Shown here: piece by piece, positions 10,550-54,250 of the stretch
Numbering within the stretch: the stretch's first letter is position 1
Layout of the letters: every line of letters starts with the position of its first letter
Assembly: GCF_058153355.1 (NCBI RefSeq)
Contig: NZ_CM177019.1
DNA length: 64,000 nt
Direction: 5' to 3' (one strand)
Program-made: the position numbers and the translations under genes
Notes under the pieces: generated by a model
Database searches by the model: none
Told to the model about the DNA's origin: nothing
Seen by the model: the letters and a program-made list of their open reading frames with translations, nothing else

Positions 10550-12196
10550 ATGTCAAACAAACCCTTTATCTACCAGGCACCTTTCCCGATGGGGAAAGAC
10601 AATACCGAATACTATCTACTCACGTCCGATTACGTTAGCGTTGCCGACTTCGACGGCGAAACCATCCTGAAAGTGGAACCAGAAGCCCTGACCTTGCTGG
10701 CGCAGCAAGCCTTCCACGACGCTTCTTTCATGCTCCGCCCGGCACACCAGAAACAGGTCGCGGCTATTCTTCAAGATCCAGAAGCCAGCGAAAACGACAA
10801 GTACGTGGCGCTGCAATTCTTAAGAAACTCAGAAATCGCCGCCAAAGGCGTGCTGCCGACCTGCCAGGACACCGGCACCGCGATCATCGTCGGTAAAAAA
10901 GGTCAGCGCGTGTGGACCGGTGGCGGCGATGAAGAAGCGCTGTCGAAAGGTGTCTATAACACCTATATCGAAGATAACCTACGTTACTCACAAAACGCGC
11001 CGCTGGACATGTACAAAGAGGTCAACACCGGCACGAACCTGCCTGCGCAAATCGACCTGTACGCGGTAGATGGCGACGAATACAAATTCCTCTGCGTCGC
11101 CAAAGGCGGTGGCTCTGCCAATAAAACGTATCTCTACCAGGAAACCAAAGCTTTGCTGACTCCCGGCAAACTGAAAAACTTCCTCGTCGAGAAAATGCGT
11201 ACACTCGGTACTGCAGCCTGCCCGCCGTACCATATCGCGTTTGTGATTGGCGGTACGTCTGCGGAAACCAACCTGAAAACCGTCAAGTTAGCAAGCGCTC
11301 ACTATTACGATGAACTGCCGACCGAAGGGAACGAACATGGTCAGGCGTTCCGCGATGTCCAGCTGGAACAGGAACTGCTGGAAGAGGCCCAGAAACTCGG
11401 CCTTGGCGCGCAGTTTGGCGGTAAATACTTCGCGCACGACATCCGCGTGATCCGTCTGCCACGTCACGGCGCATCCTGCCCGGTAGGTATGGGCGTCTCC
11501 TGCTCCGCTGACCGTAACATTAAAGCGAAAATCAACCGCGAAGGTATCTGGATCGAAAAACTGGAACACAATCCAGGCCAGTACATTCCACAAGAACTGC
11601 GTCAGGCCGGTGAAGGCGAAGCGGTGAAAGTCGACCTTAACCGCCCGATGAAAGAGATCCTCGCCCAGCTTTCGCAATACCCGGTATCCACCCGCTTGTC
11701 GCTCACCGGCACTATTATCGTGGGTCGCGATATTGCACATGCCAAGCTGAAAGAGCTGATTGACGCCGGTAAAGAGCTGCCGCAGTACATCAAAGATCAC
11801 CCGATCTACTACGCGGGTCCGGCGAAAACGCCTGCCGGTTATCCATCAGGTTCACTTGGCCCAACCACCGCAGGTCGTATGGACTCCTACGTGGATCTGC
11901 TGCAATCCCACGGCGGCAGCATGATCATGCTGGCGAAAGGTAACCGCAGTCAGCAGGTTACCGACGCGTGTCATAAACACGGCGGCTTCTACCTCGGTAG
12001 TATCGGCGGCCCGGCGGCGGTACTGGCGCAGCAGAGCATCAAGCATCTGGAATGCGTCGCTTATCCGGAGCTGGGTATGGAAGCTATCTGGAAAATCGAA
12101 GTAGAAGATTTCCCGGCGTTTATCCTGGTCGATGACAAAGGCAACGACTTCTTCCAGCAAATCGTCAACAAACAGTGCGCGAACTGCACTAAGTAA
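10550..12196 (+). CDS. fumB: Class I fumarate hydratase FumB (548 aa)
   Basis: Recognised FumB sequence [31 protein letters not shown]...; Fe-S fumarase family. Confidence 0.93.
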
Positions 12197-12318
12197 CCTC
12201 TTCGGCCCAGCGCCTGGCAGCATGCTGCCAGGTGATCCCCCTGGGCCACCTCTTTTGCGATTGTAATTTCACGCTTGCTGGTGAATAGTCAGTATTTTCC
12301 CTGACTTGCGAACTCACC

Positions 12319-12969
12319 ATGACCCGCACACTCAAGCCGTTAATTCTTAACACCGGCGCACTGGCGCTAACGTTAATCCTGATTTATACCGGCATTTCGG
12401 CCAATGACAAACTCACCTGGCTGATGGAAGTGACACCGGTGATTATTGTCGTGCCGCTACTGCTTGCCACCGCCAGACGTTACCCGTTAACGCCGCTGCT
12501 CTATACGCTCATTTTCTTTCATGCCATCATCCTGATGGTCGGCGGGCAATACACCTACGCGAAAGTCCCCGTTGGTTTTGAGGTGCAGGAATGGCTGGGG
12601 TTGAGCCGTAATCCGTATGACAAGCTGGGGCATTTTTTCCAGGGGCTGGTGCCTGCACTGGTGGCGCGAGAAATTCTCGTTCGCGGGATGTACGTGCACG
12701 GACGTAAAATGGTGGCGTTTCTGGTCTGCTGCGTGGCGCTGGCGATAAGCGCGATGTATGAATTAATCGAGTGGTGGGCAGCGCTGGCAATGGGTCAGGG
12801 AGCGGATGATTTTCTCGGCACCCAGGGCGACCAGTGGGACACACAATCCGATATGTTCTACGCGCTACTTGGTGCATTAACTACGGTGATATTCCTTGCT
12901 CGCTTTCATTGCCGCCAGCTACGGCGCTATGGCTTAATCACCAGAGCGCCGGAAGCGATTACCTCTTAA
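12319..12969 (+). CDS. yjdF: Inner membrane protein YjdF
   Basis: Hydrophobic ORF in conserved position after fumB; start codon not verified. Confidence 0.8.
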   Translation: MTRTLKPLILNTGALALTLILIYTGISANDKLTWLMEVTPVIIVVPLLLATARRYPLTPLLYTLIFFHAIILMVGGQYTYAKVPVGFEVQEWLGLSRNPYDKLGHFFQGLVPALVAREILVRGMYVHGRKMVAFLVCCVALAISAMYELIEWWAALAMGQGADDFLGTQGDQWDTQSDMFYALLGALTTVIFLARFHCRQLRRYGLITRAPEAITS

Positions 12970-14321
12970 CGGTGTAACCAGCCTGGCAGCCAGTCGCCGT
13001 GGGCGGCAATCAGGTCGTCAACAAGAGCATATATTTCGTCAATGCCCAGCACGGCGGCAGTATGCGGGTCCATCATCGCGGCGTGGTAAACACGGTCGCG
13101 ATTTTCTGTGAGAATGGCTTCCGTCAGCAGTGTCTGTACGTTGATATTGGTTTGCATCAGGGCGGCCAGATGCGAAGGTAGCGTACCGACTTTGGTCGGC
13201 TGAATGCCATTAGCATCAACCAGACAGGCCACTTCCACACAACATCCTTGTGGCAGGTTATCAATCAAACCATCGTTACGGACGTTGCCATAAATCACAC
13301 TCGGCTCGCCAGTCCAGATAGCGTTCATGATTGTGCTGGCATATTCCCGTGACGGTTTAATATCAATCCGGGAGGCGTTCTTATACTCCTCCAGCTCTTT
13401 ATGCCAGTTCGCCAGCTGCTCGACGCAGCGTTTCGGGTACTCATCCAGCGGTACTTTATAACGCTCAATCAAATCCTCACGACCTGGCTTAATAAACCAC
13501 GGTGTGTACTCAGCAAAATGTTCTGACGATTCCGTGACGAAGTAGCCCAGCTTTTTGAACATTTCGTAACGCACAATATTCTGGCAGCGAGTATTACCAT
13601 GAATATTTGGCTTCGGTGCCTGCCCTGCTTCATAAGCCGCCAGCAGTTCCGGGTAGAGATTCACGTAACTGCCGTCGGCGGTTTTGCGCTCCAGTTCCAG
13701 GTAAAACGCCATATGGTTGATACCCGCACAACGGTAACGCAGCGTAGCCGGGTCGATATTGAGGTCACGCGCCAGCTCTTCCGCCGTTCCCTGCACCGAA
13801 TGACACAGCCCTACCTGTTTGATATGCGGATAACGGGCATACATCGCCCAGGTATTCATCGCCATTGGGTTAACATAGTTGAGCATGGTGGCATCGGGGC
13901 AGACTTCCGTCATGTCCTCGCAAATTTGCCACAGGTGAGGAATGGTACGTAGCGCGCGCATAATACCGCCCGGCCCCAGCGTATCGGCAATGGTTTGTTC
14001 CAGACCGTGGCGCTTACAGACCTCGAAATCAGTCACCGTGCAAGGTTCATAACCGCCAATCTGAAATGCCACCACGACAAAATCGGCATCCTGTAAGGCT
14101 TCTTTCTGTTGGGTGTGGCAGGTGATTTTGCCGCTGGCCCCTGCTGAATCCATCAGCTTGCGCACCACAATATGCGACTCTTCCAGGCGGGTGGGATCAA
14201 TGTCCATCAGGGCAATATGCGCCGTTTTCAGCGCCTCGCGATGGAACACATCACCAAGAATATTTTTAACGAAAATCGTCGAACCAGCGCCGATAAATGT
14301 AATTTTGGGTGCAGACATCAT
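12966..14321 (-). CDS. melA: Alpha-galactosidase MelA (451 aa, NAD/Mn-dependent GH4 family)
   Basis: Recognised MelA sequence MMSAPKITFIGAGSTIFVKNILGDVF...; divergent from melR; stop codon overlaps the yjdF stop. Confidence 0.93.
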   Translation of the reverse strand: MMSAPKITFIGAGSTIFVKNILGDVFHREALKTAHIALMDIDPTRLEESHIVVRKLMDSAGASGKITCHTQQKEALQDADFVVVAFQIGGYEPCTVTDFEVCKRHGLEQTIADTLGPGGIMRALRTIPHLWQICEDMTEVCPDATMLNYVNPMAMNTWAMYARYPHIKQVGLCHSVQGTAEELARDLNIDPATLRYRCAGINHMAFYLELERKTADGSYVNLYPELLAAYEAGQAPKPNIHGNTRCQNIVRYEMFKKLGYFVTESSEHFAEYTPWFIKPGREDLIERYKVPLDEYPKRCVEQLANWHKELEEYKNASRIDIKPSREYASTIMNAIWTGEPSVIYGNVRNDGLIDNLPQGCCVEVACLVDANGIQPTKVGTLPSHLAALMQTNINVQTLLTEAILTENRDRVYHAAMMDPHTAAVLGIDEIYALVDDLIAAHGDWLPGWLHR

Positions 14322-14397
14322 GCAGATCTCCTGGCTTGCTTGAATAACTTCATCATGGCAGGCGAATCTGCAGAAAACCTCCGGCTTCCAGGTTGAG

Positions 14398-14454
14398 CAT
14401 TCCCATAAACTCAGATCCTGCGTGAAGTGTCAGTAAATCTGAGTTTATGGGAAT
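14398..14454. promoter_or_regulatory. Inverted pair of MelR operator sequences (cattcccataaactcagat ... atctgagtttatgggaat) in the melR-melA divergent promoter region
   Basis: Two near-identical 18-bp sequences in inverted orientation seen directly; agrees with the known MelR site architecture at the melAB promoter. Confidence 0.6.
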
Positions 14455-14603
14455 AAATTACCTGAAAAGCAGAGTTTTCGGCCTCATGGTACTCGGATGA
14501 TCCCTTCGCCCCTCTGGCAAGAGGGCGAAAACCGTGCTCCCACTCGCAGTCATCCTCCCTCACTCCTGCCATAATTCTGATATTCCAGGAAAGAGAGTCA
14601 TCC

Positions 14604-15512
14604 ATGAATACAGATACGTTTATGTGCAGCAGCGACGAAAAACAGACCCGCAGCCCGCTGTCGCTGTATTCGGAATACCAGCGGATGGAGATTGAGTTTC
14701 GCGCACCGCATATCATGCCCACCAGCCACTGGCATGGTCAGGTCGAAGTGAATGTGCCTTTCGATGGCGATGTGGAATACCTGATCAACAATGAAAAAGT
14801 GAGTATCAATCAGGGACATATCACGCTGTTCTGGGCCTGTACACCGCACCAACTAACAGATACCGGAACCTGTCAGAGCATGGCGATTTTTAATCTGCCG
14901 ATGCATCTGTTTCTCTCCTGGCCGCTGGATAAAGACCTGATTAACCACGTCACTCACGGCATGGTGATCAAATCACTGGCGACACAGCAACTTAGCCCGT
15001 TTGAAGTGCGCCGCTGGCAGCAGGAATTGAACAGTCCGAACGAGCAAATTCGCCAGCTCGCCATTGATGAAATTGGCCTGATGCTCAAGCGATTTAGCCT
15101 CTCTGGCTGGGAACCGATTCTGGTCAATAAAACCTCGCGCACACACAAAAACAGCGTCTCGCGCCATGCGCAATTTTATGTCAGCCAGATGCTGGGCTTT
15201 ATTGCCGAAAACTATGATCAGGCGCTGACCATCAACGATGTGGCTGAGCACGTCAAACTTAACGCCAACTATGCAATGGGGATATTCCAGCGGGTCATGC
15301 AATTGACGATGAAACAGTACATTACTGCGATGCGCATCAACCACGTTCGTGCGTTACTGAGCGATACCGATAAAAGTATTCTCGATATTGCCCTGACGGC
15401 AGGCTTTCGTTCGAGTAGCCGTTTTTACAGCACGTTCGGCAAATATGTCGGCATGTCACCGCAACAATACCGCAAACTTAGCCAACAGCGCCGCCAGACG
15501 TTTCCCGGCTAA
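14604..15512 (+). CDS. melR: AraC-family melibiose operon activator MelR (302 aa)
   Basis: Recognised sequence MNTDTFMCSSDEKQTRSPLSLYSEY...; C-terminal AraC-type helix-turn-helix. Confidence 0.93.
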   Translation: MNTDTFMCSSDEKQTRSPLSLYSEYQRMEIEFRAPHIMPTSHWHGQVEVNVPFDGDVEYLINNEKVSINQGHITLFWACTPHQLTDTGTCQSMAIFNLPMHLFLSWPLDKDLINHVTHGMVIKSLATQQLSPFEVRRWQQELNSPNEQIRQLAIDEIGLMLKRFSLSGWEPILVNKTSRTHKNSVSRHAQFYVSQMLGFIAENYDQALTINDVAEHVKLNANYAMGIFQRVMQLTMKQYITAMRINHVRALLSDTDKSILDIALTAGFRSSSRFYSTFGKYVGMSPQQYRKLSQQRRQTFPG

Positions 15513-15710
15513 AGACGATATCAGTATCAGCCAAAAAAATAGTTTAGCCGTCGATAATAAGCAGTGAAAATAAATCAAAATAATCACATAACATATTGTT
15601 TATAAAAATGAATATTTAAAAAATGTTTGTTTTTCATGCGCTTTACAGCCCGAAAAGGCCGGAAGATACTTGCCCGCAACGAAGATTCCTTCATAACCGG
15701 GTAAGCAATG

Positions 15711-22958: not shown

Positions 22959-24050
22959 ATGCGTTTTCTGCGCCGACCAATATCGCTGCGCCAACGGCTG
23001 ATATTGACCATCGGGGCCATTTTGTTGGTGTTTGAGCTGATCAGCGTCTTCTGGCTATGGCATGAAAGTACCGAGCAGATTCAGCTGTTTGAGCAGGCGC
23101 TACGCGACAATCGTAACAACGATCGCCACATCATGCGTGAGATCCGCGAGGCGGTCGCCAGCCTGATTGTCCCTGGCGTCTTTATGGTCAGCCTGACGCT
23201 ATTTATCTGCTATCAGGCGGTACGCCGCATCACCCGCCCGCTGGCGGAGCTGCAAAAAGAGCTGGAAGCGCGCACCGCCGACAACTTAACGCCCATTGCC
23301 ATTCACAGCGCCACCCTCGAAATCGAAGCGGTGGTTTCAGCGTTAAACGATCTGGTCAGTCGCCTGACCAACACGCTGGATAACGAAAGGTTGTTTACCG
23401 CTGACGTCGCGCACGAACTGCGAACGCCACTGGCGGGGGTGCGTTTGCATCTGGAACTGCTGGCGAAAACGCATCACATTGATGTAGCACCGTTAGTGGC
23501 ACGACTTGATCAGATGATGGAGAGTGTCTCCCAGCTACTGCAACTGGCGCGTGCCGGACAGTCATTTTCTTCCGGTAATTATCAACATGTAAAACTGCTG
23601 GAAGATGTCATTCTCCCCTCGTATGACGAACTCAGTACCATGCTCGACCAGCGCCAGCAAACCCTGCTATTGCCAGAGAGCGCCGCCGACATCACCGTTC
23701 AGGGTGATGCAACCCTGCTGCGGATGTTATTGCGAAACCTGGTAGAAAACGCCCATCGTTACAGCCCGCAAGGCAGCAACATTATGATTAAGCTGCAAGA
23801 CGATGGCGGAGCGGTCATGGCCGTTGAAGATGAAGGGCCGGGTATTGATGAGAGTAAATGTGGAGAGTTGAGTAAAGCGTTTGTACGAATGGACAGCCGT
23901 TATGGCGGGATTGGTCTGGGGTTAAGTATTGTCAGCCGCATTACACAGTTGCATCACGGGCAGTTTTTCCTGCAAAACCGGCAAGAGACTTCTGGCACAC
24001 GGGCCTGGATACGGCTGAAAAAAGATCAGTACGTGGCAAACCAGATATAA
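22959..24050 (+). CDS. basS: Sensor histidine kinase BasS (PmrB), 363 aa
   Basis: Recognised sequence M(R)FLRRPISLRQRLILTIGAILLVFELISVFW...; ATG at 22959 chosen over the in-frame TTG at 22950. Confidence 0.9.
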   Translation: MRFLRRPISLRQRLILTIGAILLVFELISVFWLWHESTEQIQLFEQALRDNRNNDRHIMREIREAVASLIVPGVFMVSLTLFICYQAVRRITRPLAELQKELEARTADNLTPIAIHSATLEIEAVVSALNDLVSRLTNTLDNERLFTADVAHELRTPLAGVRLHLELLAKTHHIDVAPLVARLDQMMESVSQLLQLARAGQSFSSGNYQHVKLLEDVILPSYDELSTMLDQRQQTLLLPESAADITVQGDATLLRMLLRNLVENAHRYSPQGSNIMIKLQDDGGAVMAVEDEGPGIDESKCGELSKAFVRMDSRYGGIGLGLSIVSRITQLHHGQFFLQNRQETSGTRAWIRLKKDQYVANQI

Positions 24051-24115
24051 AGAAAGCTGCTGACCACCAGCACGCTGAACACGGTAGTTAAACTTTCATA
24101 AACACGGTTTTTCAT
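24026..24115 (-). CDS. pmrR: Small membrane protein PmrR (29 aa, MKNRVYESLTTVFSVLVVSSFLYIWFATY), antisense to the last codons of basS
   Basis: Short minus-strand ORF translated by hand (below the ORF-track length cutoff); GGAGGAGAG Shine-Dalgarno upstream; PmrA box further upstream. Confidence 0.7.
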   Translation of the reverse strand: MKNRVYESLTTVFSVLVVSSFLYIWFATY

Positions 24116-24159
24116 TGCACTCTCCTCCGTTAACCTGGAGGAGAGTATGCGCGTCAGAG

Positions 24160-24176
24160 ATTAAGTGAACCTTAAG
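24160..24176 (-). promoter_or_regulatory. PmrA box-like repeat (minus strand CTTAAG-GTTCA-CTTAAT) upstream of pmrR
   Basis: Hexamer direct repeat with 5-bp spacer seen on the minus strand about 45 nt upstream of the pmrR start. Confidence 0.5.
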
Positions 24177-24226
24177 AGTTCAATTGGCCTAATAAGACAG
24201 CGTCACATCAGGCCATCCGTTTCAGC

Positions 24227-29867: not shown

Positions 29868-31170
<1,303 letters not shown>

Positions 31171-42061: not shown

Positions 42062-42820
42062 ATGAGCCTGACCCTCACACTTACTGGCACTGGCGGCGCA
42101 CAGGGCGTTCCCGCATGGGGCTGTGAGTGTGCGGCCTGCGCCAGAGCGCAGCGCTCACCGCAGTATCGCCGCCAGCCATGCAGCGGCGTCGTGAAGTTTA
42201 ACGAGGCGATCACCCTGATCGACGCCGGGCTGCACGATCTCGCCGATCGCTGGTCGCCCGGATCGTTCCAGCAGTTTTTGCTGACGCACTACCATATGGA
42301 TCACGTGCAGGGGCTGTTTCCGCTGCGCTGGGGCGTGGGCGATTCTATCCCGGTCTACGGCCCGCCGGATGAACAGGGCTGCGACGATCTGTTTAGACAT
42401 CCGGGCCTGCTTGATTTCAGCCACACGGTGGAGCCATTTGTGATGTTTGATTTGCAGGGATTACAGGTCACGCCGCTGCCGCTCAACCATTCGAAACTCA
42501 CTTTCGGCTATCTACTGGAAACGGCACATAGCCGGGTGGCGTGGCTGTCTGACACCGCAGGCCTGCCGGAAAAAACGGTGAAATTTTTACGCAATAATCA
42601 GCCGCAGGTGATGGTGATTGATTGCAGCCACCCACCGCGCGCGAATTCGCCACGCAATCACTGTGATTTAAACACCGTGCTGGCGCTGAATGAAGTTATC
42701 CGCTCGCCGCGCGTGGTTCTGACACATATCAGCCATCAGCTTGATGTGTGGCTGATGGAGAACGTACTGCCGTCAGGGTTTGAGGCGGGGTTTGATGGGA
42801 TGGAGATTGGGGTGGAGTAA
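42062..42820 (+). CDS. phnP: Phosphoribosyl cyclic phosphodiesterase PhnP (metallo-beta-lactamase fold)
   Basis: HYHMDH motif; last gene of the phn operon. Confidence 0.92.
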
Positions 42821-42854
42821 TGGGTGAGGGGCGATGCCTGCTCTAAACTCAACA

Positions 42855-43184
42855 TCACCGCCCATACTCATCTTCCATTCTCCGCTCTTCATCTTCTAGC
42901 TGCCGACGCTCCTGATCCAGCTGGCGCTGGCGATCGTCCAGCTGCCTGCGGCGATCTTCAAACTGGCGGCGGCGATCGTCATATTGTCTGCGCCGATCGT
43001 CGTTCACTTCACGCTGCCAGCCGTCGTCGCGCGAATCTTCATAGTCTCGCCCACGGTCAGGGTTATAAGCATCGTTAATCGCCTGCTGAATATTGCCAAT
43101 GGTGTCGTCGATAATATCGGCCTGGGCCGGAACGGTGGACAGCGTGAGCAGGGTGAATAAAAGAAATAGCGGAAAACGTTTCAT
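42855..43184 (-). CDS. yjdP: Secreted Arg/Asp/Glu-rich repeat protein YjdP (109 aa)
   Basis: Signal peptide followed by low-complexity DDRRRQ.. repeats. Confidence 0.85.
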   Translation of the reverse strand: MKRFPLFLLFTLLTLSTVPAQADIIDDTIGNIQQAINDAYNPDRGRDYEDSRDDGWQREVNDDRRRQYDDRRRQFEDRRRQLDDRQRQLDQERRQLEDEERRMEDEYGR

Positions 43185-43252
43185 TAGCCAACCTCAAAAA
43201 GAAACTCTATCCACATTAGTCATTACTCATCCATGCAAGTAGTGGATGAATC

Positions 43253-43570
43253 TCAATTTTTCCGCTGCTCTATTGCCGTAATCGCCTCCACGCGTTGTTG
43301 ATGACGACCGCCTTCGTACTGCGCGCCCAGCCACGCATCCACAATCATTTTTGCCAGTTCGAGGCCAACCACTCGTGAACCAAAAGCCAGTGCAACTTCA
43401 CTGGCGTAATGCGGATAATCAGTGCGCTCTGACGACCTGGTTTCTTTATCAATCCCCTCACTCATTGACCATGAATAAAAGGCTGGCACAGCAACGCAGA
43501 ATCCTGCGGTGCCAGCGACATGACCGCCCATTGCTCCGGTACGTTTTTTAATAAGAAATACCGGTTGCAT
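43253..43570 (-). pseudogene. rpiB: rpiB-derived remnant: C-terminal region of ribose-5-phosphate isomerase B retained, internal segment missing, N-terminal part unrecognisable
   Basis: ORF contains ...SSERTDYPHYAS.VALA then FGSRVVGLELAKMIVDAWLGAQYEGGRHQQRVEAITAIEQR.N, which matches RpiB as I recall it, but about 50 central residues including the catalytic Cys region are absent. Confidence 0.55.
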
Positions 43571-43822
43571 TGATTAATTGTGCTCAGTATTTGCCGAAGT
43601 ACAATATATATAATAAATATATAAAACACCTCATATTATTTACAGAGATAATAAATTCGCGTACTTTTCCCTCTTCAGCACAAATGCCTAATAAAATGGC
43701 TCGTTCCGCTCACACTTCCACTTATTAAAATCGCAATTTCCCAATTATGATAACGCCAGCTTTAAATGACGTATTTTGCATGGATTACATATTTACGACA
43801 CAAATGATAAATGGAGATTTAT

Positions 43823-45808
43823 ATGAATAACTCTCGGTTATTCCGTTTGAGCAGGATTGTTATTGCGTTAACTGCCGCCAGCGGCATGATGGTAAATACC
43901 GCTCACGCAACAGATGAAGCGAAAGCCGCCACTCAATATACCCAACAGGTTAATCAGAATTACGCCAAATCATTACCGTTTAGCGATCGTCAGGATTTTG
44001 ACGATGCCCAGCGTGGATTTATCGCTCCGCTGCTGGATGAAGGTATTCTGCGTGATGCGAATGGCAAAATTTACTACCGCGCGGATGATTACAAATTTGA
44101 TATTAATGCCGCTGCGCCGGAAACCGTAAACCCCAGCCTGTGGCGTCAGTCGCAGATCAACGGCATTTCTGGCCTGTTCAAAGTCACCGATAAAATGTAT
44201 CAGGTGCGCGGCCAGGATATCTCTAACATTACATTCGTTGAGGGCGAGAAAGGCATTATTGTTATCGACCCACTGGTGACGCCGCCTGCCGCAAAAGCCG
44301 CACTTGACCTTTACTTCCAGCATCGTCCGCAAAAACCGATTGTTGCTGTTATTTACACCCACAGCCACGCCGACCATTATGGCGGTGTGAAAGGCATTAT
44401 CTCTGAAGCGGATGTTAAATCTGGCAAAGTGCAGGTGATCGCTCCGGCAGGCTTTATGGACGAAGCCATCAGCGAAAACGTGCTGGCGGGTAACATCATG
44501 AGCCGCCGTGCACTTTACTCTTACGGCCTGTTACTGCCGCACAACGCGCAAGGTAACGTGGGCAATGGGCTTGGCGTGACGCTGGCAACGGGCGACCCGA
44601 GCATTATTGCGCCAACCAAAACGATTGTCAGAACTGGCGAGAAGATGGTCATCGACGGTCTGGAGTTTGACTTTCTGATGACTCCGGGTAGCGAAGCTCC
44701 AGCCGAAATGCACTTCTATATTCCGGCCCTGAAAGCCCTGTGTACCGCCGAAAACGCCACGCATACCTTGCACAACTTCTACACCCTGCGCGGCGCGAAA
44801 ACCCGCGACACCAGCAAGTGGACAGAGTATCTGAACGAAACGCTGGATATGTGGGGTAACGACGCGGAAGTACTGTTTATGCCGCACACCTGGCCGGTCT
44901 GGGGCAATAAGCATATCAATGATTATATTGGTAAATATCGCGATACTATCAAATACATTCACGACCAGACCCTGCACCTGGCGAACCAGGGTTACACCAT
45001 GAATGAAATCGGCGACATGATTAAGCTGCCACCTGCGCTTGCCAATAACTGGGCCAGCCGCGGCTATTACGGTTCTGTTAGCCACAACGCCCGTGCAGTG
45101 TATAACTTCTATCTCGGCTATTATGACGGCAATCCAGCTAACCTACATCCGTACGGTCAGGTGGAGATGGGCAAACGTTACGTGAAAGCGCTGGGCGGTT
45201 CCGCCCGTGTCATCAACCTGGCGCAAGAAGCGAACAAGCAAGGGGATTACCGCTGGTCAGCAGAGTTGCTGAAACAGGTGATTGCTGCCAATCCGGGTGA
45301 CCAGGTGGCGAAGAATCTGCAAGCGAATAACTTTGAGCAGTTGGGTTATCAGGCCGAGTCCGCCACCTGGCGCGGTTTCTACCTGACCGGCGCAAAAGAG
45401 CTGCGCGAAGGGGTGCATAAGTTCAGCCACGGCACCACCGGTTCTCCGGACACCCTTCGCGGGATGTCGGTCGAAATGCTGTTCGACTTTATGGCCGTTC
45501 GCCTCGATAGCGCGAAAGCCGCAGGTAAGAATATCAGCCTGAACTTCAATATGAGCAACGGCGATAACCTCAACCTGACGCTGAACGATAGCGTGCTTAA
45601 CTACCGTAAAACGCTGCAACCTGAAGCCAACGCCTCTTTCTACATCAGCCGTGAAGATCTGCACGCCGTGCTGACCGGACAAGCCAAAATGGCCGATCTG
45701 GTGAAAACGAAGAAAGCCAAAATTATTGGCAATGGCGCGAAACTGGAAGAAATTATTGCCTGTCTGGATAATTTTGATTTGTGGGTGAATATCGTAACCC
45801 CAAATTAA
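43823..45808 (+). CDS. yjcS: Alkyl/aryl-sulfatase YjcS (661 aa; metallo-beta-lactamase plus SCP2-like domains)
   Basis: Signal peptide [29 protein letters not shown]; HSHADH motif. Confidence 0.9.
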
Positions 45809-50856: not shown

Positions 50857-50864
50857 AATGTCAG

Positions 50865-50898
50865 CCGCGTGATGGCTGTCACGCGGTATTTCGTTTCG
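50865..50898 (+). terminator. Stem-loop ccgcgtga-tggctg-tcacgcgg then T-rich tail, after mdtP
   Basis: 8-bp stem followed by tatttcgtttcg. Confidence 0.55.
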
Positions 50899-51053
50899 TC
50901 ACGTCAAAACTGACGACAGCCTGTTTTTCGTCAGAGTTTTGAATAAATAGTGCCCGTAATATCAGGGAATGACCCCAAATAAAATGTGGCATAAAAGATG
51001 CATACTGTAGTCGAGAGCGCGTATGCGTGATTTGATTAACTGGAGCGAGACCG

Positions 51054-53201
51054 ATGAAAAAAGTCGTCACGGTTTGCCCCTATTGCGCATCAGGTTGCAA
51101 AATCAACCTGGTCGTCGATAACGGCAAAATCGTCCGGGCGGAGGCAGCGCAGGGCAAAACCAACCAGGGTACCCTGTGTCTGAAGGGGTATTATGGCTGG
51201 GATTTCATTAACGATACCCAGATCCTGACCCCGCGCCTGAAAACCCCCATGATTCGTCGCCAGCGTGGCGGCAAACTCGAACCTGTTTCCTGGGATGAGG
51301 CACTGAATTACGTTGCCGAGCGCCTGAGCGCCATCAAAGAGAAGTACGGTCCGGATGCCATCCAGACGACCGGCTCCTCGCGTGGTACGGGTAACGAAAC
51401 CAACTATGTAATGCAAAAATTTGCGCGCGCCGTTATTGGTACCAATAACGTTGACTGCTGCGCTCGCGTCTGACACGGCCCATCGGTTGCAGGTCTGCAC
51501 CAATCGGTCGGTAATGGCGCAATGAGCAATGCTATTAACGAAATTGATAATACCGATTTAGTGTTCGTTTTCGGGTACAACCCGGCGGATTCCCACCCTA
51601 TCGTGGCGAATCACGTAATTAACGCTAAACGTAACGGGGCGAAAATTATCGTCTGCGATCCGCGCAAAATTGAAACCGCGCGCATTGCTGACATGCACAT
51701 TGCACTGAAAAACGGCTCGAATATCGCGCTGTTGAATGCGATGGGCCATGTCATTATTGAAGAAAATCTGTACGACAAAGCGTTCGTCGCTTCCCGTACA
51801 GAAGGCTTTGAAGAGTATCGTAAAATCGTTGAAGGCTACACGCCGGAGTCGGTTGAAGATATCACCGGCGTCAGCGCCAGTGAGATTCGTCAGGCGGCGC
51901 GGATGTATGCCCAGGCGAAAAGCGCCGCCATCCTGTGGGGCATGGGTGTAACCCAGTTCTACCAGGGCGTGGAAACCGTGCGTTCTCTGACCAGCCTCGC
52001 GATGCTGACTGGTAACCTCGGTAAGCCGCATGCGGGTGTAAACCCGGTTCGTGGTCAAAACAACGTGCAGGGGGCCTGCGATATGGGCGCACTGCCAGAT
52101 ACTTACCCTGGCTACCAGTATGTGAAAGATCCGGCTAACCGCGAGAAATTCGCCAAAGCCTGGGGTGTAGAGAGTCTGCCTGCTCATACCGGTTATCGCA
52201 TCAGCGAGCTGCCGCACCGCGCAGCGCATGGTGAAGTGCGTGCCGCGTACATTATGGGCGAAGATCCGCTACAAACTGACGCGGAGCTGTCGGCAGTACG
52301 TAAAGCCTTTGAAGATCTGGAACTGGTCATCGTTCAGGACATCTTTATGACCAAAACCGCGTCGGCGGCGGATGTCATTTTACCGTCAACGTCGTGGGGC
52401 GAGCATGAAGGCGTGTTTACTGCGGCTGACCGTGGCTTCCAGCGTTTCTTCAAAGCAGTTGAACCGAAATGGGATCTGAAAACGGACTGGCAGATTATCA
52501 GTGAAATCGCCACCCGTATGGGTTATCCGATGCACTACAACAACACCCAGGAGATCTGGGATGAGTTGCGTCATCTGTGCCCGGATTTCTACGGTGCGAC
52601 TTACGAGAAAATGGGCGAACTGGGCTTCATTCAGTGGCCTTGTCGCGATACTTCAGATGCCGATCAGGGGACTTCTTATCTGTTTAAAGAGAAGTTTGAT
52701 ACTCCGAACGGTCTGGCGCAGTTCTTCACCTGCGACTGGGTAGCGCCAATCGACAAACTCACCGACGAGTATCCGATGGTACTGTCAACGGTGCGTGAAG
52801 TCGGTCACTACTCTTGCCGTTCGATGACCGGTAACTGTGCGGCACTGGCGGCGCTGGCTGATGAACCTGGCTACGCACAAATCAATACCGAAGACGCCAA
52901 ACGTCTGGGTATTGAAGATGAGGCATTGGTTTGGGTGCACTCGCGTAAAGGCAAAATTATCACCCGTGCGCAGGTCAGCGATCGTCCGAACAAAGGGGCG
53001 ATTTACATGACCTACCAGTGGTGGATTGGTGCCTGTAACGAGCTGGTTACCGAAAACTTAAGCCCGATTACGAAAACGCCGGAATACAAATACTGCGCCG
53101 TGCGCGTCGAGCCGATCGCCGATCAGCGCGCCGCCGAGCAGTACGTGATTGACGAGTACAACAAGTTGAAAACTCGCCTGCGCGAAGCGGCATTGGCGTA
53201 A
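51054..53201 (+). CDS. fdhF: Formate dehydrogenase H, selenopolypeptide FdhF (715 aa) with in-frame UGA (Sec140) at 51471-51473
   Basis: The two ORF-track pieces (51054-51473, 51522-53201) are in the same frame, separated only by TGA; N-terminal Cys cluster CPYCASGC; Mo-bisPGD enzyme family. Confidence 0.92.
51471..51520 (+). promoter_or_regulatory. Selenocysteine insertion stem-loop immediately 3' of the fdhF UGA
   Basis: Sequence TGACACGGCCCATCGGTTGCAGGTCTGCACCAATCGGTCGG matches the fdhF SelB-binding hairpin as I recall it. Confidence 0.8.
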
Positions 53202-53214
53202 TACAGTCCTTTCT

Positions 53215-53244
53215 ACAGCCTCCTGTCGGAGGCTGTTTTTTTAT
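53215..53244 (+). terminator. Rho-independent terminator after fdhF (acagcctcc-tgtc-ggaggctgt then TTTTTTT)
   Basis: 9-bp perfect stem and 7-T run seen in sequence. Confidence 0.8.
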
Positions 53245-53294
53245 CCATTCGAACTCTTTATACTGGTCACTCCCTACCCAATCGTATTATCAAA

Positions 53295-53984
53295 ATGAAA
53301 AAAATTATCGCATTGATGTTGTTTTTGACATTCTTTGCCCATGCGAACGGCTCCGAGCCTGGCAGTCAGTATCTCAAGGCTGCAGAGGCTGGAGACCGAC
53401 GCGCACAATATTTTCTTGCCGACAGCTGGTTTAGCTCCGGCGATTTGAGCAAAGCCGAATATTGGGCACAGAAAGCCGCCGACAGCGGTGATGCTGATGC
53501 CTGCGCGCTGTTGGCGCAGATCAAAATCACCAATCCGGTCAGTCTGGACTATCCACAAGCAAAAGTTCTTGCAGAGAAAGCGGCGCAAGCGGGCAGTAAA
53601 GAAGGTGAAGTGACGCTGGCGCATATTCTGGTGAATACTCAAGCGGGTAAACCGGATTATCCAAAGGCGATTTCGCTGTTAGAAAACGCCTCGGAAGATC
53701 TGGAGAACGACTCCGCCGTCGATGCCCAAATGCTGCTTGGTTTGATTTACGCCAACGGCGTGGGCATTAAGGCCGACGATGACAAGGCAACCTGGTATTT
53801 CAAACGCAGCTCTGCGATTTCACGAACCGGTTATTCCGAGTACTGGGCGGGAATGATGTTCTTAAATGGTGAAGAAGGTTTTATCGAGAAGAACAAACAG
53901 AAGGCGCTGCACTGGCTGAACCTGAGCTGTATGGAAGGGTTTGATACCGGGTGTGAAGAGTTTGAAAAATTAACTAACGGTTAA
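53295..53984 (+). CDS. yjcO: Sel1-repeat periplasmic protein YjcO (229 aa)
   Basis: Signal peptide; Sel1/TPR-like repeats. Confidence 0.88.
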   Translation: MKKIIALMLFLTFFAHANGSEPGSQYLKAAEAGDRRAQYFLADSWFSSGDLSKAEYWAQKAADSGDADACALLAQIKITNPVSLDYPQAKVLAEKAAQAGSKEGEVTLAHILVNTQAGKPDYPKAISLLENASEDLENDSAVDAQMLLGLIYANGVGIKADDDKATWYFKRSSAISRTGYSEYWAGMMFLNGEEGFIEKNKQKALHWLNLSCMEGFDTGCEEFEKLTNG

Positions 53985-53985
53985 T

Positions 53986-54250
53986 GTAGGCCTGATAAGA
54001 CGCGGTAAGCGTCGCATCAGATATTAATGTCGGATGCGGCGTAAACGCCTTATCCGACCTACAAAATCACCCTAAATCAAGCTATTGCGCAGTCTGGCGT
54101 AGGCCTGATAAGACGCGGCAAGCGTCGCATCAGGCATTGATGTCGGATGCGGCGTAAACGCCTTATCCGACCTACAAAATCACGCTAAATCAGGCTATTG
54201 CGCAGTCTGGCGTAGGCCTGATAAGACGCGGCAAGCGTCGCATCAGGCAT
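53986..54250. repeat. Tandem BIME array: about 2.3 copies of a roughly 114-bp unit built from inverted REP pairs
   Basis: Unit gtaggcctgataagacgcggcaagcgtcgcatcag...gtcggatgcggcgtaaacgccttatccgacctacaaaatcac... recurs at about 53986, 54100 and 54213. Confidence 0.9.

Follow-up and report, generated by a model that had tools for sequence, protein, structure and literature searches.

The segment 51054-53201 of the DNA analysed here (the window, a 64,000-nucleotide stretch of contig NZ_CM177019.1, RefSeq assembly GCF_058153355.1) is almost certainly an intact fdhF gene of an E. coli lineage, in which UGA codon 140 is recoded as selenocysteine (Sec) by means of a SECIS hairpin to give a 715-residue formate dehydrogenase H (FDH-H). 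A preliminary reading of the sequence had put forward selenocysteine recoding, rather than a pseudogene, to account for the appearance of the locus as two open reading frames. This is borne out by the continuity of the frame, the identity of the product to FDH-H, the SECIS at the TGA and differences from other strains that are exclusively synonymous. The gene and its SECIS are the textbook fdhF and are already known. fdhF is the original example of selenocysteine recoding in bacteria, and the locus therefore offers no new biology, its value being one of annotation hygiene.

Reading frame and gene product

The features of the locus, with the Pfam domains of its product, are as follows.

50904-50942, no strand assigned: imperfect inverted repeat TCAAAACTGACGA...TCGTCAGAGTTTTGA, with nested repeats I3 and I5; identical in K-12
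50986-51002, plus strand: sigma-54 (-24/-12) promoter element GTGGCATAAAAGATGCA; exact match, present once in the window and 0 times in shuffles
51042-51045, plus strand: Shine-Dalgarno sequence GGAG, with 8 nt between it and the ATG at 51054; read from the sequence
51054-53201, plus strand: fdhF coding sequence for formate dehydrogenase H, 715 codons and a TAA stop
51466-51520, plus strand: full SECIS hairpin, Rfam SECIS_2 (RF01988), containing the TGA and extending 5 nt upstream of it
51471-51473, plus strand: TGA, codon 140, the predicted Sec codon (Sec140, the expected molybdenum ligand); the only internal stop, aligned with X140 of the PDB chain
51482-51501, plus strand: minimal SECIS, the SelB-binding upper stem-loop ATCGGTTGCAGGTCTGCACC; exact match to the sequence in PMC10945757
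53215-53243, plus strand: intrinsic terminator from a terminator scan, a 9-bp G+C-rich stem followed by seven T, 14 nt past the stop codon
Residues 1-54: Molybdop_Fe4S4 (PF04879)
Residues 61-487: Molybdopterin (PF00384), spanning TGA codon 140
Residues 576-682: Molydop_binding (PF01568)

On the plus strand, 51054-53201 translates as 716 codons in a single frame, the sole internal stop being the TGA at codon 140. The ATG at 51054, the TGA at 51471-51473 and the terminal TAA at 53199-53201 all lie in this frame. A mechanical ORF list nevertheless shows two entries, one of 139 aa at 51054-51473 and one of 559 aa at 51522-53201. The two ORF starts differ by 468 nt, or 156 codons (156 x 3), and are hence in frame with one another; a frame change between 51054 and 53201 was looked for and none was found, so that the earlier description of two ORFs in one frame stands. 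The accompanying statement that only a TGA separates them is correct as to the TGA at 51471-51473 but overlooks the 16 sense codons that follow it (51474-51521), which agree with residues 141-156 of the crystallised protein. The second ORF is listed from 51522 because the ORF lister resumes at the next ATG, Met157, and the residue count is accordingly 139+1+16+559 = 715. Direct reading of the sequence upstream of this internal ATG revealed no GGAG or AGGA comparable to that preceding the ATG at 51054. Two antisense ORFs, 51090-51503 and 51558-52229 (both minus strand), gave no Pfam match; they were rejected as genes and put down to chance, lying as they do antisense to a coding region.

With X at residue 140, the read-through product is identical at all positions, 1-715 on 1-715, to the chain in PDB entries 1AA6, 1FDI, 1FDO, 2IV2 and 7Z0T. 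The PDB sequence of formate dehydrogenase H also has X at residue 140. The assignment of a 715-residue formate dehydrogenase H is thus confirmed by identity to the solved enzyme, including the presence of a non-standard residue at 140. The NCBIfam equivalog TIGR01591 (formate dehydrogenase subunit alpha) matches with 1089 bits against a curated cut-off of 666.25 bits, residues 6-685 aligning with profile positions 1-672 of 672. The Pfam domains follow the order found in FdhF, with an N-terminal Fe4S4 domain, a molybdopterin oxidoreductase domain and a C-terminal molybdopterin dinucleotide-binding domain. The translation contains C8, C11, C15 and C42, and TGA140 followed by H141; we take the four cysteines to be the ligands of the [4Fe-4S] cluster and Sec140-His141 to be the active site of FDH-H. 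Formate dehydrogenase H is the catalytic subunit of formate hydrogenlyase, a selenoprotein with Mo-bis-MGD and a [4Fe-4S] cluster, and the product encoded in the window would be expected to couple the oxidation of formate to hydrogenase 3. Residue 140 of FDH-H has been described as Sec, and the UGA encoding it as adjoining the SECIS (PMC10945757).

The SECIS hairpin, decoding and expression

An Rfam scan of the whole window returned one selenocysteine insertion sequence, the SECIS_2 match at 51466-51520 on the plus strand (87.9 bits, E = 1.2e-17, model positions 1-55 of 55). This score lies above the gathering score of 70 bits, and the consensus of the family agrees with the window sequence at every position printed. 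The hairpin has the consensus structure of this enterobacterial fdhF-type element, including the GGUC apical loop and the unpaired U below it, and nothing notable differs. The minimum free energy fold of the 55 nt (-21.6 kcal/mol) recovers all 20 of the Rfam consensus pairs. The stem-loop that had been reported directly at the TGA is therefore present, by both its covariance score and its fold. In energy it is less distinctive, having a z-score of -1.76 with 12 of 200 shuffles as stable. The folding check originally proposed, on 51471-51520, gave a divided result: the segment folds into the same inner structure as the 55-nt range, but at -14.9 kcal/mol it is no more stable than shuffled sequence (z = -0.08; 90 of 200 shuffles at least as stable). 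Since hairpin energy fails to discriminate, reliance was placed on the covariance-model and exact-sequence matches. The SECIS is above chance by its match in sequence plus structure, without its folding energy standing out, and the presence or absence of a stem-loop is a weak test of recoding if judged by energy only.

Bacterial SECIS elements are defined as lying within an ORF, immediately 3' of an in-frame UGA (PMC4513850), and the hairpin at 51466-51520 occupies such a location with respect to the in-frame UGA at 51471-51473. Comparison with the characterised fdhF SelB-binding element, a further check that had been suggested, yielded an exact match to the minimal SECIS at 51482-51501, and ATCGGTTGCAGGTCTGCACC occurs only once in the window. 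The upper stem-loop carries its GGUC apical loop at 51492-51495 and its unpaired U at 51487/51488. Measured on the sequence, the 17-nt upper stem-loop GGUUGCAGGUCUGCACC (51485-51501) begins 11 nt past the UGA. An 11-nt/17-nt rule for the SECIS upper stem-loop and its spacing from the UGA was reportedly formulated by Liu et al. in 1998.

In the mechanism envisaged, the ribosome would pass UGA140 without terminating owing to the SECIS hairpin situated just downstream in the mRNA. The specialised elongation factor SelB, together with Sec-tRNA(Sec) and GTP, would bind the upper stem-loop and effect delivery to the A site, leading to the insertion of selenocysteine, and Sec140 would become a molybdenum ligand in the bis-MGD cofactor of the active site. 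Established knowledge of fdhF leads us to expect that SelB binds this SECIS and that UGA140 is actually decoded as Sec, and that selABCD are present in the source genome. The window itself contains no tRNA genes, and no blastn or tblastn match to K-12 selA, selB, selC or selD was found in it. Among 5426 complete E. coli genomes, K-12 selAB are present in 5425, selC in 5424 and selD in 5425. As the sel genes are near-universal in E. coli and there is no decay past the TGA, it is very likely that selABCD are functional in the source genome.

Termination at UGA by release factor RF2 competes with recoding even in the wild type, and recoding efficiency is given as 30-40% (PMC4513850). If that figure holds, RF2 would terminate translation at UGA140 on the majority of ribosomes. 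The 139-residue product made when RF2 wins would be an isolated Fe4S4 domain, which might act, for example, as a read-out of selenium status. That this product has a cellular role of its own, or that the lineage-specific C-G pair 51467/51519 of the outer SECIS helix, where U-G stood otherwise, tunes recoding efficiency, seems a very long shot.

The sigma-54 promoter element sits 52-68 nt upstream of the fdhF ATG, and the same 17-mer, GTGGCATAAAAGATGCA, is the sigma-54 ChIP-seq site OS41 upstream of fdhF (PMC4591121). A scan for sigma-70-like sites upstream of fdhF on the plus strand returned none. FhlA is a listed activator of fdhF and its enhancer consensus is quoted as the 16-mer CATTTCGTACGAAATG (PMC4987338). 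Upstream of fdhF the best match to CATTTCGTACGAAATG is 9/16, and no other best score is more frequent among 197-nt slices of the whole window. The inverted repeat at 50904-50942 precedes the expected start site by approximately 70-110 nt, a position which we take to be that of the fdhF upstream activating sequence. This position makes the repeat a candidate FhlA enhancer and, given that the FhlA consensus is at background level, a positional candidate only. In keeping with the literature, FhlA would activate the sigma-54 promoter in the presence of formate under anaerobic conditions, and transcription would end at the intrinsic terminator past the stop codon. Upstream, the terminator scan detected a G+C-rich hairpin of 10 bp trailed by a T-rich stretch (50864-50887, plus strand) directly past the mdtP stop codon (50856), which is likely to be a terminator insulating the sigma-54-driven fdhF from the mdtNOP operon.

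Conservation across the TGA and competing explanations

Of 5426 complete E. coli genomes, 5419 contain a match to the 2451-nt fdhF region. In E. coli K-12, fdhF (b4079) has the same length and the same neighbours, mdtP upstream and yjcO downstream; the genes share 98.0% nucleotide identity, and the promoter regions differ at 2 of 197 bases. All of the 42 base differences between the two genes are synonymous (42/42), with 41 at third codon positions. They affect both sides of the TGA, 37 of them lying downstream of it. No further stops or frameshifts were found in the alignment with K-12. Against strain EC42405 there are 14 base differences, again all synonymous (14/14). Purifying selection is thus strict on both sides of the TGA. 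Within the SECIS, the outermost helix has a U-G pair in K-12 and a C-G pair in the window, resulting from a substitution at 51467, and no functional difference is expected from this exchange.

The comparison was extended to two further genera by way of the fragment proteins. The outgroups are L004, from Raoultella ornithinolytica, and L005, a metagenome contig encoding a sequence named Citrobacter koseri; for the fragment proteins of Klebsiella michiganensis and Enterobacter hormaechei no gene is on record. Both outgroup genes retain the ATG, TGA140 and the 716-codon frame, with 92% amino acid and 83% nucleotide identity for Raoultella, and 97% and 90%, respectively, for the Citrobacter koseri-like sequence. 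TGA codon 140 is therefore common to K-12, EC42405, Raoultella and Citrobacter. SECIS_2 is found at the equivalent position in both genera, with scores of 84.3 bits in Raoultella and 86.3 bits in Citrobacter. When the four sequences are aligned, neither the upper stem-loop nor its 3' strand varies and the minimal SECIS is unchanged from 51484 on, changes being located in the middle and outer helices and at flanking third positions. Thus an A to U change at model position 17 in Raoultella loses one pair of the middle helix, while A to G at position 38, in Raoultella and Citrobacter, converts a U-A pair of the same helix to U-G. Over codons 138-156, third positions have changed at 3/19 codons in Raoultella, compared with a proportion of 0.40 elsewhere (P = 0.023), and at 2/19 in Citrobacter, compared with 0.275 (P = 0.07). 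With two outgroups, this reduction gives modest support to an RNA constraint on top of the coding constraint. The fdhF neighbourhood in Raoultella (L004, 1-4080) is unlike that in E. coli, having a xanthine/uracil permease gene upstream, and Fer2_2 and MoCoBD/FAD_binding_5 (xanthine-dehydrogenase-like) genes downstream.

These comparisons bear directly on whether the locus is a pseudogene created by a nonsense mutation at codon 140, as might be supposed from the two entries in the mechanical ORF list and from the many public annotations in which the halves stand as separate proteins. Neither relaxed selection nor a stop confined to this gene was seen: TGA140 recurs in K-12, EC42405, Raoultella and Citrobacter, 0 of the 42 substitutions are non-synonymous with 37 of them beyond the TGA, the SECIS at the TGA is intact, and the solved structure has a non-standard residue at exactly position 140. 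With 42 of 42 differences synonymous across the 715-codon frame, pseudogene decay is therefore ruled out, and the conservation pattern leaves a nonsense pseudogene a negligible probability. No more credible is the notion of two separate genes, in which the first 139 aa would form a small Fe-S protein and a 559-aa catalytic subunit would be translated independently from the ATG at 51522, even though an ATG opens both ORFs and each fragment has a Pfam match when called separately. The Pfam Molybdopterin domain (61-487) and TIGR01591 (6-685) cross the junction as a single stretch, and a domain uninterrupted across the TGA argues against separate genes. The 16 codons from the TGA to the ATG at 51522 are sense codons matching crystal residues 141-156, this ATG is without a Shine-Dalgarno sequence, and the protein that was crystallised is one 715-residue chain. 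Domain continuity and the solved single-chain structure together exclude this arrangement.

A different possibility is that the UGA fails to be read as Sec in spite of an intact gene and SECIS, either through a sel defect or because the gene is silent. With a sel defect, the outcome at the UGA would be only termination or low-level near-cognate read-through, with Trp or Cys for example. The window is indeed without selA, selB, selC and selD, and RF2 termination competes even in wild-type cells, recoding efficiency being 30-40% (PMC4513850). Against this, each of the sel genes is found in 5424 or more of the 5426 complete E. coli genomes, and selection past the TGA is of a strictness that would not be maintained were the full-length product unmade. 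The full-length product is therefore presumably made, and failure to decode the UGA is considered highly improbable. Recoding of UGA140 in an intact fdhF accordingly remains the reading adopted here.

Public annotation and other features of the window

In the three records inspected, those of K-12 and its counterparts in the two closest genomes, RefSeq annotates a single 2148-nt fdhF coding sequence with mdtP and yjcO on either side, as in the window. In a public protein collection, by contrast, the exact 559-aa fragment is found on at least 1000 contigs, with names including 'Formate dehydrogenase H [Escherichia coli]' and UniRef W8TX44_ECOLX, and its 90%-identity cluster has 11,377 members. 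The exact 139-aa fragment (W8SXU3_ECOLX) is likewise present on at least 1000 contigs, its cluster numbering 2,374. On the Citrobacter-like contig the 139 and 559 halves are called as adjacent genes, while in Raoultella the N-terminal 139-codon part of fdhF is uncalled. The caution in the sequence-only reading that automated callers often split or truncate such genes was well founded, given the abundance of both fragments and the split on the Citrobacter-like contig. It holds for generic callers, whereas the NCBI RefSeq annotation handles fdhF properly. ORF-based callers give fragments of 139 and 559 aa, or lose the small one, and these fragments have spread through public protein collections, where they occur on thousands of contigs. 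In practice, 51054-53201 should be treated as one intact selenoprotein gene and never as a pseudogene.

When segments 39500-64000, 50900-53350 and 11800-15700 were compared with 5426 complete RefSeq E. coli genomes, the best identity was 98.5% over 24.5 kb, and 99.3% locally. The window thus appears to derive from an E. coli lineage, or from a close relative outside this set such as Shigella, that is not closely represented among these genomes. No IS-sized disruption of the window is apparent from its ORF list.

Two differences in gene content from K-12 were observed. In K-12 a 1422-nt melB lies between melA and yjdF, whereas the window has no melB at 12319-14321, the melA ORF (12966-14321, minus strand) overlapping the yjdF ORF (12319-12969, plus strand) by 4 nt. 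The closest complete genomes align across melA-yjdF in one piece, with melB unlisted under the match, and the deletion seems to be common to a lineage. Loss of melB would leave alpha-galactosidase without the melibiose permease. The interval between phnP (42062-42820) and yjcS (43811-45808) is approximately 1 kb in the window (42820-43811), as opposed to approximately 9 kb in K-12, where it contains yjdP, rpiB, alsR and alsBACEK. The related strain Z0117EC0005 retains yjdP and a 318-nt RpiB-family remnant at this location. Coverage of 39500-64000 at a single place reaches 80% or more in only 3418 of 5425 genomes, a figure that accords with a variable phnP-yjcS region.

A further Rfam match, to 'STnc630 enterobacterial sRNA' (24019-24184, minus strand; 182 bits), contains a 29-codon ORF (24026-24115, minus strand) encoding MKNRVYESLTTVFSVLVVSSFLYIWFATY. 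This ORF is preceded by a hairpin and lies between basS-like and proP-like ORFs, and we take its product to resemble the small membrane peptide PmrR. The 'STnc630 sRNA' at 24019-24184 is thus probably a small-protein mRNA. Finally, Rfam naRNA4 (CssrE), an extragenic palindromic repeat of the REP type, was matched at 29871-29947 (plus strand), 53989-54059 (minus strand) and 54102-54172 (minus strand). The last two form a tandem between yjcO and gltP, a short way downstream of fdhF and yjcO.
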